The notes under the pieces were generated by a model. The model made no database searches and had not been told where the DNA came from. It worked only from the letters and a program-made list of their open reading frames with translations. From Planctomycetota bacterium (GTDB lineage Bacteria; Planctomycetota; SZUA-567; H5-PLA8): a DNA stretch of 64,000 nucleotides. This document shows positions 8,542 to 21,000 of the stretch, in pieces (within the stretch, counting starts at the first letter, position 1; each line of letters begins with the position of its first letter). Both the position numbers and the translations under genes were made by a program. The stretch covers positions 5,867-69,866 of the forward strand of contig DATGGK010000215.1 in assembly GCA_035308565.1 (NCBI GenBank). Direction: 5' to 3'.

Positions 8542-9117
8542 ATGGAGAGATCAACGGCGTCCGCCCAAACTTCGGCTCTCAGCGCATCGTCTGAGTCAAC
8601 AAGTGAGAGCGCCGAGCGAAACGGGCCTTGTCTGCTTGCGCGCGCCGCCGGCCGGCTGTGCGCGCTGCCGCTGGCGAATGTGTTCGAAGTCATGCGCCCG
8701 CTGCCGATCGAGCCGTTTCCGGCCATGCCGCCGTCGGTGCTGGGACTCTCGACGATTCGCGGAACGCCCCTGCCAGTCGTGGATCTGGCGCAACTCGTCG
8801 AGCCGCGCCCGCCAGTAAGCGGGGACGCATCGCACGGCGCGCCGGAGACGCGCCTTACATTGAGCGGCCGGCGCTTCATCACCATCCGCACCAATGACGC
8901 CTCGCGCATTTTTGCGCTGAGTGTCGAAGCGATCGAGCGCGTTGGCCAACTCAGCGGCGCCGCGTGGGAGTCGCTTCCGCCGCTGTTGAATGCCGGACAT
9001 TCCGAGACCATCGACGCCATCGGCACGCTGGACATGCGCGTGCTATTGCTCCTGAAAGCATCGCGTCTGATCGATGACCAGACGTGGAACTCGATCGAAA
9101 AGGAGCGCCGCGCGTGA
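8542..9117 (+). CDS. cheW: CheW-like coupling protein
   Basis: CheW-domain pattern: LCALPLANVFEVMRPLPIEPFP..VLGLSTIRGTPLPVVDLAQLV. Its stop overlaps the cheR start (GTGA). The exact start is uncertain. Confidence 0.8.
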   Translation: MERSTASAQTSALSASSESTSESAERNGPCLLARAAGRLCALPLANVFEVMRPLPIEPFPAMPPSVLGLSTIRGTPLPVVDLAQLVEPRPPVSGDASHGAPETRLTLSGRRFITIRTNDASRIFALSVEAIERVGQLSGAAWESLPPLLNAGHSETIDAIGTLDMRVLLLLKASRLIDDQTWNSIEKERRA

Positions 9118-10787
9118 ATCCGACACTGTCACGAGCCGACGTGGAGCGCTTTCGCGCGGCCGTGTGCCGGCGCTTCGGGCTGCGCTTTGACGATTCGAAA
9201 CTCGAGTTTCTCGAAGATGTGTTGCGTGCGCGTCTCACCGCATGGAGGGGCGGCACTCCTGCCGCCCTTGGCGCGCGATCACACGAGTACCTTGAGCGCC
9301 TGAACTTGCCGACATGCAGCCGCGACGAATTGAATGCTCTGGCGCAGGCGCTGACGGTCAACGAAACGTTTTTCTTCCGCAATCAGGAACAATTCCGCGC
9401 GTTGGAGGCGAGGCTGGAGACTAGAGACTGGAGACTGGAAGAACGGAGCGCGCACGCGAATCTCCAGTCTCCAGTCTCGCCGTTCAAAACGCTCCGCGTC
9501 CTTTCTGCCGGATGCGCGTCGGGCGAAGAAGCGTATTCGCTGGCGATTGCAATCCGCGAGCGCCTGCCCGACGGATGGAGCGCTGAAATCGCCGGCATCG
9601 ATCTGAATCCGGCGGTGATCGAAAAAGCGCGCCGCGCGCACTACAGCGAGTGGTCGTTGCGCGGCACCGACGATGCGATTCGCGAGCGCTATTTTTCACG
9701 CGACGGCAACGACTTCGTGCTCAACGAATCCGTGCGCAAGATGGTTACGTTCGACGAGCGCAACCTGATTCACGACGATGCGATGTTCTGGCGCCCGCAT
9801 TCGCTCGACGTGGTCTTCTGCCGCAATGTCACGATGTATTTTCCCAACGACGTGACGCAGGCCGTTATCGCCCGCATCGCGCGTGCGCTGGTCCCCGGCG
9901 GCTACCTCTTTTTGGGCCACGCGGAAACGCTGCGCGGCATTTCGAATGACTTTCATCTGCGGCACACGCACGACACCTTCTATTATCAGCGCAAAGAAAC
10001 GATCGAAAGCCGTTTGAAATCAACCACAGAAAGCGCGGAGAGCGCAGAGAAAAGCAATTGGGAAGAAAGTACATTCGATTTGACCCGCGCAGGCGAGACG
10101 GCTGCGCCGCTGGCGTTCACCCCGCTGCTGGCGGGCGATACGTCGTGGATCGGAGCGATTCAGCAGGCGTCGGAGCGCATTGCGGCGCTCGCGAAGCGCG
10201 ATTCGAAAGCGATTGCGCCCGACCAAAGCGGAACGGAGCGGGAGCTCCGTTCTACGGGCGCCGCGCCGCCGCCGCGTGCAAACATTGGCCCGGAGACAAA
10301 CATCGCACTGGAATTGCTGCGCGCGGAACGCTACGCCGACGCGATCGACGTGCTCAACAAATTGCCCGCGCACTCGCAGGCCGACGCCGACGTTCAATTG
10401 CTGCGCGCGGTGCTGCTCACCCATGCGGGCAAACTCGCCGACGCGCAGCACGTCTGCGATCAACTGCTGGCCAAAGATGAGTTGAACGCGGGCGCGCATT
10501 ATCTCGCGGCGCTCTGCCGCGAACATGCCGGCGATGCGTCCGGCGCGAAGGAACATAACCAGGCCGCCGCGTACTTAAACGGCGCCTTCGCCATGCCGCA
10601 TCTACATCTGGGCTTGCTCGCGCGCCGCGCACACGACGCCGGCACCGCGCGCCGCGAACTCGACACCGCGCGCACGCTGCTGCGCTGCGAAGACGCCTCG
10701 CGGATTCTGCTCTTCGGCGGCGGTTTCAGCCGCGAAGCACTGATCGAATTGTGCAACGCGGAATTGAGAACGTTGGGGGAAGCGTAG
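9114..10787 (+). CDS. cheR: Chemotaxis protein methyltransferase CheR with a C-terminal TPR region (WspC-like)
   Basis: ETFFFRN, RVLSAGCASGEEAYSLA, VFCRNVTMYF, LVPGGYLFLGHAE. C-terminal helical TPR-like repeats. GTG 9114 overlaps the cheW stop. An alternative upstream start exists at 9084. Confidence 0.85.
   Translation: MNPTLSRADVERFRAAVCRRFGLRFDDSKLEFLEDVLRARLTAWRGGTPAALGARSHEYLERLNLPTCSRDELNALAQALTVNETFFFRNQEQFRALEARLETRDWRLEERSAHANLQSPVSPFKTLRVLSAGCASGEEAYSLAIAIRERLPDGWSAEIAGIDLNPAVIEKARRAHYSEWSLRGTDDAIRERYFSRDGNDFVLNESVRKMVTFDERNLIHDDAMFWRPHSLDVVFCRNVTMYFPNDVTQAVIARIARALVPGGYLFLGHAETLRGISNDFHLRHTHDTFYYQRKETIESRLKSTTESAESAEKSNWEESTFDLTRAGETAAPLAFTPLLAGDTSWIGAIQQASERIAALAKRDSKAIAPDQSGTERELRSTGAAPPPRANIGPETNIALELLRAERYADAIDVLNKLPAHSQADADVQLLRAVLLTHAGKLADAQHVCDQLLAKDELNAGAHYLAALCREHAGDASGAKEHNQAAAYLNGAFAMPHLHLGLLARRAHDAGTARRELDTARTLLRCEDASRILLFGGGFSREALIELCNAELRTLGEA
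9414..9479. repeat. Inverted heptamer arrays (GGAGACT-type) inside the cheR ORF
   Basis: ctggagactagagactggagactggaag (9414-9441) and its inverse tctccagtctccagtctcg (9461-9479). Translated in frame as RLETRDWRLEERSAHANLQSPVSP. Confidence 0.9.
10230..10256. repeat. Palindromic element, family H (GAACGGAGC..GCTCCGTTC), inside cheR
   Basis: ggaacggagcgggagctccgttctacg. Same element as at 12897-12965, 24351-24374 and 54961-55088. Read in frame as SGTERELRSTG. Confidence 0.9.
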
Positions 10788-10863
10788 TCATAGTGGCCAA
10801 ATAGGTCCCATAGGCCCTATATGCCCTATAGGGCTTATAAGGCCTACTGGAAGGGGAGTTGCG

Positions 10864-19430: not shown

Positions 19431-19465
19431 CTGACTCCTAACCCCTGACTCCTGACCCCTGCCCT
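19431..19465. repeat. Heptamer array (CTGACTC/CTGACCC)x5, inverse orientation of the 18982 array
   Basis: ctgactcctaacccctgactcctgacccctgccct. It is the reverse complement of the CAGGAGT/CAGGGGT family. Confidence 0.9.
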
Positions 19466-19479
19466 CTGAGGATCGCCCT

Positions 19480-21000
19480 ATGAGCAAACCGATTCGCGTC
19501 CTGGTCGTTGAAGATTCGGAAGACGACCATTACCTGCTGCTGCGCGAACTGCGGCGTAACGATTACGCACCGGAGTCGCTTCGCGTTGAGATACCGGAAA
19601 CGATGAACGCTGCGCTCAATAAAGAGGCGTGGGACATCGTCATCTCGGATTACGCGCTGCCGCAGTTCAGCGCGCCGGCGGCGTTGAAGCTTGTGCAGGA
19701 CCGCGGCATCGATCTGCCTTTCATCATCATGTCGGGCGCGGTGGGCGAGGAGCGCGCAGTCGCGGCGCTCAAAGCGGGCGCGCACGATTTCATTCCAAAA
19801 GGCGCGATGCCGCGGCTGGTGCCGGCGATCGAGCGCGAATTGCGCGAGGCCGAAAGCCGGCGGGCGCGGCGCAAAGCGGAAGCCGAGGTCAGCGATCTCT
19901 ACGAGAATGCGCCGTGCGGTTATCACTCGCTCGACAGTGACGGCATTTTCGTGCGCATCAACAACACCGAGCTTTCTTGGCTTGGCTACAAGCGCGAAGA
20001 AATCGTCGGCGTGAAAAGATTCAGGGACCTCGTCGCGCCGAACAGCCGCAAAGTTTACGAGGATGCTTTCGAAGCGTTCAAAGCGAGCGGATCGGTGCGC
20101 GACGTGGAATACAACATCGTTCGCAAAGACGGCTCGATCATGCCGGTGCTGTTGAACTCGTCGCTGATCCGCGATGCGCAGGGTCGCTACGTGATGAGCC
20201 GCTCGATCGTCTTCGACACCAGCGAACGCAAGCGGCTCGAAGAGCAATTGCGCCATTCGCAAAAGCTCGACGCGATCGGCAAATTCGCGGGCAGCGTGGC
20301 CAGCGATTTCAACAACATGATCGCGCTGATTCTCAAACATTCGCAGGGCACGCTGGACAGCTTGAAGCCGGGCGACGCGATGAGCCGGCCGCTGACGCTT
20401 ATTAATGAGACCGGTAAAAAGGCGGCGGCGCTGACCAAATTGTTGCTCGCGTTCAGCCGTCGGCAATCGGTCGATGCGAAAGTGCTGGACCTTTATTACA
20501 TCGTGGCCGGAATGGAGGCAATGCTGCGGCGCATGCTGCGCGAGAACATAACCATCGAAATGAAGCTGGACTCATCCGGCGCGCGCGTCAAAGCCAACCC
20601 GGAACAGATCGAGCAGATTGTGATGATCCTTGTCGAAAACGCCGGCGACGCGATGCCTGCGGGCGGCACGCTGCGTTTCGAAACATCGCGCGCGGCGCTC
20701 GACGAAAATTATTGCCGCACGCATTCCGGTGTGAAGCCTGGCGCGTACGCAGTGCTCTCGATCAGCGACACGGGCTGCGGCATCGCCGATCCGGTGATGC
20801 CGTTTATTTTCGAGCCATTTTTCACGACGAAGGAGCACGGCAAAGGCGCGGGGCTTGGGCTTTCGGCGGTCTACGGCATCGTCAAACAAGCGGGCGGCTG
20901 CATCGACGTGTTCAGCGAGATCGGAAAGGGCACGGCGTTTAAGATTTATCTCCCGCGCGTCGAGGACCCCGCGGCGCCATCGGTCGGCGCTGCGCACTGA
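19480..21000 (+). CDS. Receiver-PAS-HisKA-HATPase protein with a degenerate H-box (His replaced by Ser)
   Basis: Receiver VLVVEDSEDD..IVISDYALPQFS. PAS NAPCGYHSLDSDGIF. H-box region QKLDAIGKFAGSVASDFNNM, where the usual form is AHDFNN. G-box GKGAGLGLSAVYGIV. Confidence 0.85.
   Translation: MSKPIRVLVVEDSEDDHYLLLRELRRNDYAPESLRVEIPETMNAALNKEAWDIVISDYALPQFSAPAALKLVQDRGIDLPFIIMSGAVGEERAVAALKAGAHDFIPKGAMPRLVPAIERELREAESRRARRKAEAEVSDLYENAPCGYHSLDSDGIFVRINNTELSWLGYKREEIVGVKRFRDLVAPNSRKVYEDAFEAFKASGSVRDVEYNIVRKDGSIMPVLLNSSLIRDAQGRYVMSRSIVFDTSERKRLEEQLRHSQKLDAIGKFAGSVASDFNNMIALILKHSQGTLDSLKPGDAMSRPLTLINETGKKAAALTKLLLAFSRRQSVDAKVLDLYYIVAGMEAMLRRMLRENITIEMKLDSSGARVKANPEQIEQIVMILVENAGDAMPAGGTLRFETSRAALDENYCRTHSGVKPGAYAVLSISDTGCGIADPVMPFIFEPFFTTKEHGKGAGLGLSAVYGIVKQAGGCIDVFSEIGKGTAFKIYLPRVEDPAAPSVGAAH

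Follow-up and report, generated by a model that had tools for sequence, protein, structure and literature searches.

A Wsp-like chemosensory gene cluster as the probable front end of a two-component phosphorelay

We analyzed a 64-kb stretch of DNA (the window) and conclude, with a probability of roughly 0.6, that its chemosensory cluster encodes a non-motility, Wsp-like pathway that does the sensing for a two-component phosphorelay. Experiments in two other bacteria have already demonstrated similar wiring, of which the window carries a variant.

Gene content of the cluster

Nine genes lie on the + strand throughout: cheW, cheR, cheW, mcp, a cheA-REC hybrid, cheB, a REC-REC-REC-HisKA-HATPase kinase, a lone receiver and a REC-PAS kinase (Table 1). 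Pfam agrees on these genes with an independent gene caller that was applied to two further assemblies of this DNA. They bear out the gene positions and identities of the original prediction, including the 4-nt GTGA overlap of cheW-1 and cheR at 9114-9117 and the 3-nt gap between cheW-2 and mcp. As also predicted, the remainder of the 64-kb window yielded no GGDEF, EAL, flagellar or pilus gene, one gene (46951-49341) lying outside the Pfam look-up.

Table 1. Features of the cluster and its surroundings (positions in the window)
Feature	Position	Strand	Basis
Hybrid kinase, 1458 aa: PAS x3, HisKA, HATPase, REC, REC, Hpt	3914..8290	-	Pfam
cheW-1	8542..9117	+	Pfam CheW E = 8e-18; same call by independent gene caller
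cheR, divergent C-terminal TPR-like region at residues ~397-520	9114..10787	+	Pfam CheR E = 5e-45
cheW-2	10864..11406	+	Pfam CheW E = 1e-13
mcp, chemoreceptor with two TM segments	11410..12888	+	MCPsignal E = 1e-37
cheA-REC hybrid (Hpt, HATPase, CheW, REC)	12972..15185	+	Pfam
Heptamer array GAATGTG x5.7, cheA-cheB junction	15191..15230		Repeat analysis
cheB, REC + methylesterase; likely start MKRIRVL at 15228	15228..16370	+	Pfam; NCBIfam
Two inverted heptamer arrays forming a long hairpin between cheB and kinase	16362..16450		Fold; TRF
REC1-REC2-REC3-coiled coil-HisKA-HATPase kinase	16475..18526	+	Pfam
Single-domain response regulator, phytochrome-associated Rcp type	18541..18978	+	Pfam REC; PDB matches
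Heptamer array CAGGAAT/CAGGAGT x8.3, left arm flanking four-helix-bundle gene	18982..19039		TRF
Four-helix-bundle protein gene, 112 aa	19053..19391	+	TIGR02436, NCBIfam 83 bits vs cut-off 24; Pfam 23S_rRNA_IVP
Heptamer array CTGACTC/CTGACCC, right arm	19431..19469		Inverted relative to 18982-19039
REC-PAS-DHp-CA protein, CckA-like type	19480..21000	+	Pfam REC, PAS, HATPase; aligned to CckA 5idj

The chemoreceptor has a periplasmic domain of ~155 aa and a second TM segment at residues ~188-211 by hydropathy, after which ~281 residues of signaling domain follow. No HAMP domain matches it even at E = 10, in keeping with the predicted HAMP-less receptor with about 280 aa beyond TM2; a CHASE3 domain is present in orthologues at 50-56% identity. 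CheR is long, but the TPR tail predicted for it gives only sub-threshold matches (TPR_19 scores 23.7 bits, below its cut-off of 25). In CheA, neither P2 nor the dimerization domain has a Pfam match; the phospho-sites His45 (13104-13106) and Asp667 (14970-14972) are both invariant in the CheA alignment. CheB scores 327 bits for NCBIfam CheB subfamily NF001965, whose cut-off is 293. Its reading frame opens at 15189 and the gene caller chose 15207, while relatives align from MKRIRVL onward; the apparent 5' end is inflated because of the GAATGTG heptamer array.

The three receivers of the downstream kinase were predicted to be intact, and each indeed keeps the acidic pair, phospho-Asp, Thr/Ser and Lys. 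The phospho-sites are D53 (16631-16633), D185 (17027-17029), D321 (17435-17437) and, in the H-box, H447 (17813-17815). Across 44 sequences, the Asp, Thr/Ser and Lys of REC1-3 vary little or not at all, as does the H-box His, and the coiled-coil linker between REC3 and the DHp domain is the most conserved segment of the kinase (68%). Identity between any two of the receivers is just 26-38%, against 45-75% between each and its own counterpart in other loci; by alignment, REC1, REC2 and REC3 are distinct orthologous types. Two-receiver variants of the kinase retain REC1 and REC3, and one-receiver variants retain REC3 only (69% identity). REC2, not REC3, is the receiver most like those of CheA (41%) and CheB (32%). 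Some variants place a PAS or GAF domain between receivers and kinase core; the commonest form, to which the window's kinase belongs, has no sensor domain besides the receivers.

The lone receiver has its best PDB matches in 5ic5 and 5brj (E ~1e-43), followed by RcpA, RcpB and Rcp1. Its orthologues (55-70% identity) are direct neighbors of the kinase in 10 loci, lie no more than 10 kb away in another 4, and are also found in two of the nearest relatives (L086 and L088). It is likely the cognate acceptor of the three-receiver kinase, though only about one in three loci with a full-length kinase has it next to that gene.

A REC-PAS protein without its phospho-acceptor histidine

The last gene of the cluster departs from the two kinase cores of the original prediction: in this genome, the second core lacks a phospho-acceptor His. 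HisKA finds no match in the REC-PAS protein, and its H-box reads AGSVASDFNN, with Ser275 (AGC, 20302-20304) at the phospho-acceptor site. Ser275 is identical in two other assemblies. All 15 homologues checked keep the His, 12 of them from distant loci and three from the nearest relatives (the L087 and L088 orthologues, at 56-58% identity, and the downstream kinase of L086, which has its own H-box His). Since the ATP-binding motifs are intact and the His has become Ser, the protein is probably a pseudokinase or a phosphatase.

DivL of Caulobacter has a histidine-kinase fold with Tyr at the His site and acts by binding a phosphorylated single-domain regulator. Like DivL, the window's protein has a DHp-CA of the CckA family in which the phospho-acceptor His is substituted and the ATP-binding domain retained. 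It differs in carrying Ser instead of Tyr and in having an N-terminal receiver, and its loss of the His is lineage-specific, not family-wide.

Conservation across related loci

Using a CheA profile, we collected 80 related loci, 75 of which extend past cheB. They are labeled as about ten phyla, although such taxonomic labels may be unreliable for metagenome-assembled genomes. The order cheW-cheR-cheW-mcp-cheA-cheB is common to all 80 wherever contig extent and tblastn coverage permit reading. Uncultured soil bacteria carry the module very commonly, and it belongs to a large uncharacterized family.

What follows cheB is nearly constant. A REC-led protein begins 12-66 nt past it in 74 of the 75 loci. 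The 65 such proteins that are complete comprise 43 full-length REC x3-HisKA-HATPase kinases and 22 variants, all 22 of the latter with REC and 20 with HATPase_c. GGDEF is absent from all 65, as judged by Pfam for the variants and, for the full-length proteins, by their end-to-end match to the window's GGDEF-less kinase. These results support the original inference of a relay output, the conserved partner of the module being a multi-receiver histidine kinase in place of a CheY or a GGDEF protein.

Median identity to the window is 58.5% for the kinase, 61% for the lone receiver, 58% for CheB, 52% for the MCP, 47% for CheA, 46% for CheR and 36-39% for CheW (36% for CheW-1, over 66 loci). By this measure, the three-receiver kinase is as conserved as any che gene. 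No conserved non-signaling effector gene accompanies the module.

The synteny comparison that the original prediction had called for places the three-receiver kinase next to the che genes in relatives, and in the nearest ones the layout recurs as the same nine-gene set, lone receiver and REC-PAS kinase included, in a tightly overlapping operon. There, REC-PAS kinase orthologues (56-62% identity) lie in overlapping frames after the kinase, and in L088 and L086 the stop and start codons of kinase, receiver and second kinase overlap. In the wider set, a second kinase follows in 14 of 58 loci, about a quarter.

The divergent hybrid kinase upstream of cheW-1 is possibly a relocated member of the relay, its membership being uncertain. 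Its residues 470-1132 match, at 52% identity over 674 aa, the kinase located after the lone receiver in the operon of the nearest relative, L086; the 80 more distant loci contain no close orthologue.

Comparison with known systems

The view that this wiring had not been described does not hold, as Rhodospirillum centenum Che3 (PMC3868531) and Burkholderia WspH (PMC8552884, PMC4324302) are experimental precedents. In R. centenum, biochemical work showed that CheA3 phosphorylates REC1 of CheS3, and CheY3 is phosphorylated only by CheS3~P (He et al. 2013, PMC3868531). Like the window, Che3 has two CheW, CheR, CheB, an MCP and a CheA-REC hybrid, together with a second kinase bearing N-terminal receivers and a single-domain regulator, a likeness of architecture. 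CheS3, however, has two receivers, the second without its Asp, a PAS domain and an HWE-type core, whereas the kinase in the window combines a HisKA core with three intact receivers and lacks a PAS domain, and a further REC-PAS kinase-like gene is added downstream.

In the H-type Wsp system of Burkholderia cenocepacia (WspH/WspHRR), the REC-kinase WspH is required for Wsp output while c-di-GMP is unchanged, and a route via a further response regulator has been proposed (PMC8552884, PMC4324302). As in the window, a REC-histidine kinase hybrid takes the place of the REC-GGDEF protein WspR. In contrast, wspH is transcribed separately, from a position 5' of the operon, and its product is described as having one REC region; the authors found no H-system with a 3' regulator (PMC8552884, PMC4324302). 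In our family, the kinase is 3' of cheB in all loci but one of those extending that far (74/75) and has three receivers, and the MCP gene is fourth, not first.

Pseudomonas Wsp (WspABCDEFR) shares with the window a CheA-REC, two CheW, a long CheR, CheB, a dedicated transmembrane receptor and a non-motility output directly after cheB. The predicted Wsp layout stands for composition (a CheA-REC without P2, two CheW, a long CheR) but not for gene order, the MCP again being fourth. The outputs differ as well: that of Pseudomonas is REC-GGDEF, with GGDEF present in 0/65 of the complete proteins here, and PDB comparisons single out no WspR-like receiver among REC1-3, which lack special similarity to WspR.

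The gene order itself is that of Myxococcus xanthus Che6 (MXAN_6947-6952), which runs cheW, cheR (TPR, 569 aa), cheW, mcp, cheA-REC, cheB (PMC3945109). Mcp6 is listed with a CHASE3 sensor, as in orthologues of the window's MCP, and a HAMP domain, which the window's MCP lacks (PMC3945109). Two Myxococcaceae loci in our set (L019 and L020) have a REC x3 kinase after cheB. That such a kinase might also follow cheB6 in M. xanthus strain DK1622 is a lead only.

A proposed pathway and its alternatives

The window encodes the parts of a receptor array: a HAMP-less transmembrane receptor, with a CHASE3-type sensor in its orthologues, two CheW and a CheA-REC hybrid. CheR and CheB supply methylation-based adaptation. 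Phosphate on the Hpt domain of CheA~P would pass to one or more receivers of the three-receiver kinase, most likely to REC3, because REC3 alone among the receivers is present in all architectural variants, and it sits directly before the linker that leads to the kinase core. Which way the phosphate moves, and that REC3 receives it, we infer from architecture. Phosphorylation of the receiver would switch the core between kinase and phosphatase states, and the core would then set the phosphorylation level of the adjoining single-domain regulator. REC1 and REC2 may provide additional inputs or act as phosphate sinks. The REC-PAS kinase downstream could, in relatives, be a second donor or acceptor for this regulator, gated by PAS; here it lacks the His and so could serve only as a phosphatase, a sink (via its receiver) or a DivL-like pseudokinase.

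A narrower reading counts only the three-receiver kinase as part of the che pathway, with the hybrid kinase upstream, the lone receiver and the REC-PAS protein as separate two-component genes that happen to cluster. The lone receiver is missing at the locus in about two thirds of full-length examples, a second kinase follows in just the 14 of 58 loci, none of the 80 loci contains an orthologue of the upstream kinase, and the window's REC-PAS gene is set apart by an insertion and has lost its His. Yet orthologues of the lone receiver (55-70%) and the REC-PAS protein (56-62%) occupy overlapping frames after the kinase in the nearest relatives and recur in loci labeled as several phyla, and 14 of 58 far exceeds the background frequency of kinase genes; we regard this reading as rather unlikely. 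An ordinary flagellar (F-class) chemotaxis cluster, with CheY and motor genes elsewhere, is highly improbable. It would account for a complete core che set with adaptation enzymes, but the conserved core contains no CheY, CheA has a REC and no P2, the invariant neighbor is a kinase, and no flagellar gene occurs within 64 kb (gene 46951-49341 outside the Pfam look-up).

Phosphate might also flow otherwise than we propose. Three phosphorylatable receivers in one protein would suit a phosphate sink or feedback device draining CheA~P, comparable to sink CheY proteins, with CheA's own receiver or an unlinked regulator as the true output; CheA does have its own REC, most of the phosphate goes to the REC of CheA3 in R. 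centenum (PMC3868531), and REC2 most closely resembles CheA-REC. A sink, however, needs neither an invariant H-box His, an intact ATPase domain and a most-conserved linker nor a co-conserved regulator of cognate type, and the variants drop receivers yet retain the kinase core, so we think this unlikely. Quite unlikely, too, is a reversed flow in which PAS-input kinases are sensors feeding the che module, for instance by phosphorylating CheB-REC or CheA-REC to tune adaptation. Both proteins bear receivers, and the PAS or GAF domains of the variants imply that the kinase can have inputs of its own. Against this, the commonest form, including the window's, has no such domain, N-terminal receivers are normally inputs, and CheA is upstream in both experimental precedents (PMC3868531, PMC8552884).

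Repeat arrays and an inserted gene

Within the relay that we favor, co-transcription is less certain in the window than in relatives, because a strong hairpin lies between the che genes and the kinases, and an inserted gene with flanking arrays splits the kinases. The hairpin predicted between cheB and the kinase (16371-16450) exists, at -45.8 kcal/mol and z = -7.2, but it has no U-tract and is built of inverted heptamer arrays. The same junction in relatives spans only 12-66 nt or is an overlap. The apparent gap of ~500 nt at 18979-19480 holds a four-helix-bundle (23S rRNA IVS-type) gene between inverted heptamer-repeat arrays. In L086 and L088 the genes on either side overlap and this gene is missing between them; it is an insertion into the operon and not a signaling component. 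The arrays of the cheB-kinase hairpin are of the same kind as those that flank it.

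Gene content of the operon

The NCBI record describes the source of the window as a Planctomycetota metagenome-assembled genome. The nine plus-strand genes of the original prediction are real: each is recognized by Pfam, and an independent gene caller applied to two other assemblies of the same DNA gives identical boundaries. The same comparison reproduced the 4-nt overlap of cheW and cheR and the 3-nt gap between cheW and mcp. CheA carries a receiver and lacks P2, both indirect signs consistent with the ACF class (PMC10782961). The TPR region proposed for the C-terminus of CheR is less clear. 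The protein is a long CheR with a TPR-like signal, but its TPR matches are all sub-threshold; the CheR orthologue in L089, one of the four nearest related loci (L086-L089), has a weak match to TPR_19.

The MCP has two hydrophobic segments with approximately 281 residues after the second, and gives no HAMP match even at E = 10. The whole MCP family appears to lack HAMP, such that the signalling domain (approximately 40 heptads) would join TM2 directly. The sensor domain of the window's MCP gives only a weak match to 4HB_MCP, and its orthologues in L086, L088, and L089 (50-56% identity) score as CHASE3 sensors.

As predicted, we found no GGDEF, EAL, flagellar, or pilus genes among those looked up in the rest of the window. 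Its sole candidate c-di-GMP-related gene, 11 kb from the operon, encodes an HD_5/HD protein with the fold of HD-GYP c-di-GMP phosphodiesterases. Scans for consensus promoters and terminators gave counts no higher than those in shuffled sequence.

Features of the operon and of the surrounding window
Feature	Position	Strand	Basis or remark
CheW	8542-9117	+	strong Pfam match
CheR	9114-10787	+	strong Pfam match
CheW (second)	10864-11406	+	strong Pfam match
MCP (MCPsignal)	11410-12888	+	strong Pfam match
CheA (Hpt, HATPase, CheW, C-terminal receiver; no P2)	12972-15185	+	Pfam
CheB	to 16370	+	Pfam
Three-receiver kinase (three receivers, HisKA, HATPase)	16475-18526	+	Pfam
Lone receiver	18541-18978	+	Pfam
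Four-helix-bundle protein, 112 aa	19053-19391		TIGR02436, Pfam 23S_rRNA_IVP
Receiver-PAS-HATPase protein	19480-21000	+	Pfam
Hybrid kinase, 1458 aa (PAS x3, HisKA, HATPase, REC, REC, Hpt)	3914-8290	-	divergent from cheW
HD_5 + HD protein, 354 aa	31774-32838	-	
RNAse_A_bac and CdiI_2 genes	about 49986-51081		
Heptamer arrays	15191-15230, 16362-16450, 18982-19039, 19431-19469, 23005-23067, 30248-30279, 31661-31768, 35440-35533, 36519-36564, 46961-47066, 50609-50727, 55973-56012		
32-nt repeat	54960-55086		3.9 copies
65-nt repeat	44928-45071		2.2 copies
Acido-Lenti-1 sRNA	60026-60080	-	Rfam

Linkage of the kinase to the che genes

A CheA profile search yielded 80 related loci with CheA identities of 42-52%. 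Their records are labelled Acidobacteriota, Myxococcota, Planctomycetota, Beta-, Gamma-, and Alphaproteobacteria, Gemmatimonadota, Rokubacteria, Chloroflexota, Hydrogenedentota, and others. The order cheW-cheR-cheW-mcp-cheA-cheB is common to all 80 wherever contig extent and tblastn coverage permit it to be read. A receiver-led protein is encoded 3' of cheB in 74 of the 75 loci that reach past this gene, mostly starting 12-66 nt downstream; in the sole exception, L048, the kinase homologue lies 5' of the cluster. Synteny lends good support to the prediction of a che module feeding a His-Asp relay.

The full-length arrangement seen in the window, with three receivers followed by HisKA and HATPase, occurs in 43 loci. 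Another 22 complete proteins are likewise receiver-led, with HATPase_c in 20 and a PAS or GAF domain inserted in most; GGDEF is found in none of the 65 complete kinase homologues. Median identity to the window is 58.5% for the kinase, 58% for CheB, 52% for the MCP, 47% for CheA, 46% for CheR, and 36-39% for the CheW proteins. By this measure, the kinase is as well conserved as any che gene. It matches at least 4,879 protein clusters at E <= 1e-100, all of them with generic names. We also looked across the loci for a non-signalling effector conserved 3' of the module and found none: the only recurrent neighbors are further REC, PAS, or kinase proteins and a few cyclases.

Receivers of the three-receiver kinase

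The three receivers (REC1 to REC3, from the N-terminus) share 26-38% identity with one another and 45-75% with their counterparts in other loci; evidently, they are not recent duplicates. The acidic pair, phospho-accepting Asp, Thr/Ser, and Lys are kept in all three receivers of essentially all 44 sequences, among which the H-box His of the kinase is invariant.

Variants of the kinase with two receivers retain REC1 and REC3, and those with one retain REC3 alone (69% identity). The best-conserved segments of the kinase are REC3 (65%) and the coiled-coil linker that leads into DHp (68%). These patterns weakly suggest that REC3 gates the kinase and would be the likeliest target of CheA. The receiver closest to those of CheA and CheB themselves is REC2. 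Comparison with the PDB returned generic PleD/PhoB-type receivers for all three and singled out no CheA target; REC3 strongly matched D1 of PleD, and WspR was a weak match to REC2 only.

The rest of the relay

Downstream of the kinase, the lone receiver is a single-domain regulator of the phytochrome-associated Rcp family (5ic5 and 5brj, E about 1e-43). The genes of such regulators usually neighbor that of the cognate kinase. Orthologues of the lone receiver (55-69% identity) directly follow the three-receiver kinase in 10 loci and lie within 10 kb in 4 more, and they occur only with its full-length form. In about a quarter of loci, the next sizeable gene is a further kinase.

For the window's lineage, the nearest relatives settle membership of the rest of the predicted relay. 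L088 contains the full set of nine, with stop codons that overlap the following start codons; its kinase is 66% identical to that of the window, its lone receiver 70%, and its REC-PAS kinase (H-box AHDFNN intact) 56%. A REC-PAS kinase orthologue comes right after the three-receiver kinase in L087 (58%) and L089 (62%). L086 instead encodes the lone receiver (67%) and then a REC-PAS-HisKA-HATPase-REC protein, to which the core of the hybrid kinase divergent from the window's operon is 52% identical over 674 residues. Because the che genes of L086 show the same level of identity, this hybrid kinase may be a relay member that has moved. No close orthologue of it occurs among the 80 more distant loci.

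The original prediction gave the relay two kinase cores, yet one of them lacks a phospho-acceptor His. The third downstream protein, of CckA-like receiver-PAS-HATPase type, has no HisKA match. Its H-box reads AGSVASDFNN and, when aligned to CckA (5idj), places Ser275 (AGC, 20302-20304) at the phospho-acceptor His, the residue by which histidine kinases are classically recognized. His occupies this column in 12 of 12 homologues from related loci and in the orthologues of the nearest relatives (15 of 15 checked overall). The Ser recurs in two further assemblies, of which one differs at 2 of 22,214 bases, and two substitutions separate AGC from a His codon. Apart from this site, the protein is full-length and its ATP-binding motifs are intact; it probably serves as a pseudokinase, a phosphatase, or a sink through its receiver.

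Comparison with known systems

The likeness to the Wsp system holds only in part. The window agrees with it in having two CheW proteins, a CheA-REC that lacks P2, and a CheR whose TPR signal is weak, but not in gene order or in the GGDEF output. In Pseudomonas, the order is wspA (mcp), B (cheW), C (cheR), D (cheW), E (cheA-REC), and F (cheB), followed by the REC-GGDEF regulator WspR. In contrast, the window and all related loci that can be read at this point have the MCP gene in fourth place, and the three-receiver kinase takes the place after cheB.

The wiring was initially not recognized as described, but two systems provide precedents. The Che3 system of R. centenum has a REC-REC-PAS-HWE kinase, CheS3, whose REC1 is phosphorylated by CheA3-REC, and the single-domain CheY3 is phosphorylated by CheS3~P only (PMC3868531). 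The Wsp cluster of B. cenocepacia has the REC-kinase WspH and no WspR; WspH is required for the wrinkly output, leaves c-di-GMP unchanged, and has been proposed to signal via a DNA-binding regulator (PMC8552884, PMC4324302). Set against the published description of Che3 (PMC3868531), the window likewise encodes a CheA-REC, a second kinase whose receivers are N-terminal, and a single-domain regulator; with the H-type Wsp of Burkholderia, it shares a REC-histidine kinase hybrid in the place of WspR.

Both precedents also differ from the window. The second receiver of CheS3 is degenerate and its core is of the HWE type, preceded by PAS, while wspH has one receiver and forms a separate unit 5' of its operon. 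Kessler et al. found no H-systems with a 3' regulator. The window is set apart from Che3 and WspH alike by a kinase whose three receivers are all intact, a PAS-free HisKA core, the position 3' of cheB, the MCP in fourth place, and the presence of a third kinase-like gene.

The che genes of M. xanthus Che6 are ordered as in the window, and this system has a TPR-bearing CheR and a CHASE3 receptor, making it a lead toward a cultivable model; our search for MXAN_6953 returned nothing. We ruled out M. xanthus Che8 as a homologue because CheA8 lacks REC and CheR8 lacks TPR. Comamonas Flm, described with "three receiver domains", is a Tfp-class system and irrelevant here. In a plasmid collection, tblastn with the kinase and CheA gave only partial or approximately 30%-identity matches and no annotated close relative. 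A literature search of one library, a weak negative, found no description of a three-receiver kinase linked to CheA.

A model for signal flow

Domain content, conserved phospho-sites, and synteny are seen in the sequence and outline a possible route for the signal. The array (MCP, two CheW proteins, and CheA-REC), with adaptation by CheR and CheB, would control CheA autophosphorylation. CheA~P would then phosphorylate one or more receivers of the three-receiver kinase, switching its kinase/phosphatase balance, and this kinase would set the phosphorylation of the Rcp-type regulator. In the relatives, a second, PAS-gated kinase would converge on the same regulator node; in the window, the Ser275 protein would no longer be able to autophosphorylate at the canonical site. 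We infer every phosphotransfer step of this route, as well as the role of REC3 and the cellular target of the pathway.

The broadest form of this model, to which we assign a probability of roughly 0.3, describes a very large cross-phylum chemosensory class. Its methylation-adapting array would be the dedicated input of a kinase whose three non-redundant, separately conserved receivers jointly form a phospho-logic gate, integrating CheA and other donors before committing a single-domain regulator. The second kinase here would have become a His-less, DivL-like pseudokinase.

To our knowledge, non-motility chemosensory arrays are common in genomes and have been characterized in only a handful of organisms. 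The module shows that a Wsp-like array with a three-receiver histidine kinase is a conserved, abundant design rather than a one-off, and the system belongs to a large uncharacterized family. Given this abundance across clusters and across loci labelled with about ten phyla, the systems studied in R. centenum (Che3) and Burkholderia (WspH) are probably particular instances of a far broader class. If the broadest form of the model holds, soil Acidobacteriota, Planctomycetota, and Myxococcota would have an unstudied system with a kinase output as their commonest non-motility chemosensory pathway. The family raises the questions of which receiver takes the CheA phosphate, what the other two do, and what the Rcp-type regulator targets. 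Taken by itself, the window is correctly annotated, yet precedented.

Heptamer arrays and an inserted cassette

The interval 18979-19480, originally read as a gap of approximately 500 nt, holds a gene for a four-helix-bundle protein (TIGR02436, 83.4 bits against a curated cut-off of 24). Two inverted heptamer arrays bracket this gene. The nearest relatives lack it at this junction, and their flanking genes overlap; together with its arrays, the gene looks like an inserted cassette. In L016, another related locus, a four-helix-bundle gene also lies right after the kinase, on the opposite strand.

The predicted hairpin between cheB and the kinase exists (-45.8 kcal/mol, z = -7.2). It is formed by a pair of inverted heptamer arrays and lacks a U-tract. 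Since similar period-7 arrays occur in many other intergenic gaps, a repeat element spread through the genome is a likelier reading of the hairpin than a dedicated terminator. Compared with its nearest relatives, the window's operon has gained this hairpin, the four-helix-bundle cassette with its arrays, and the His-to-Ser change.

The heptamer arrays are short and tandem (3-17 copies, 75-100% match), and occupy many intergenic gaps. Often paired and inverted, they would form long hairpins, for example between convergent genes (23005-23067 and 35440-35533). The unit varies by site (GAATGTG, CAGGAAT, TAGGAGA, TTCAAGA, and others). We take them to resemble the STRR heptamer repeats of heterocystous cyanobacteria, and know of no description for the window's lineage. 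The longest array (TTCAAGA, 17 copies, 50609-50727) lies between a gene with the bacterial RNase A-like toxin domain RNAse_A_bac and the immunity-like gene CdiI_2.

Two other repeats have longer units. Each copy of the 32-nt unit contains a GC-rich palindrome (GAACGGAGC...GCTCCGTTC), and this array lies between convergent genes; the 65-nt unit is separate. Because spacers are absent, neither is a CRISPR array. The window also gives a match to the Acido-Lenti-1 sRNA that barely passes the threshold, at 37.2 bits against a gathering score of 37; the family is described for Acidobacteria and Lentisphaerae, and the window's record is labelled Planctomycetota.
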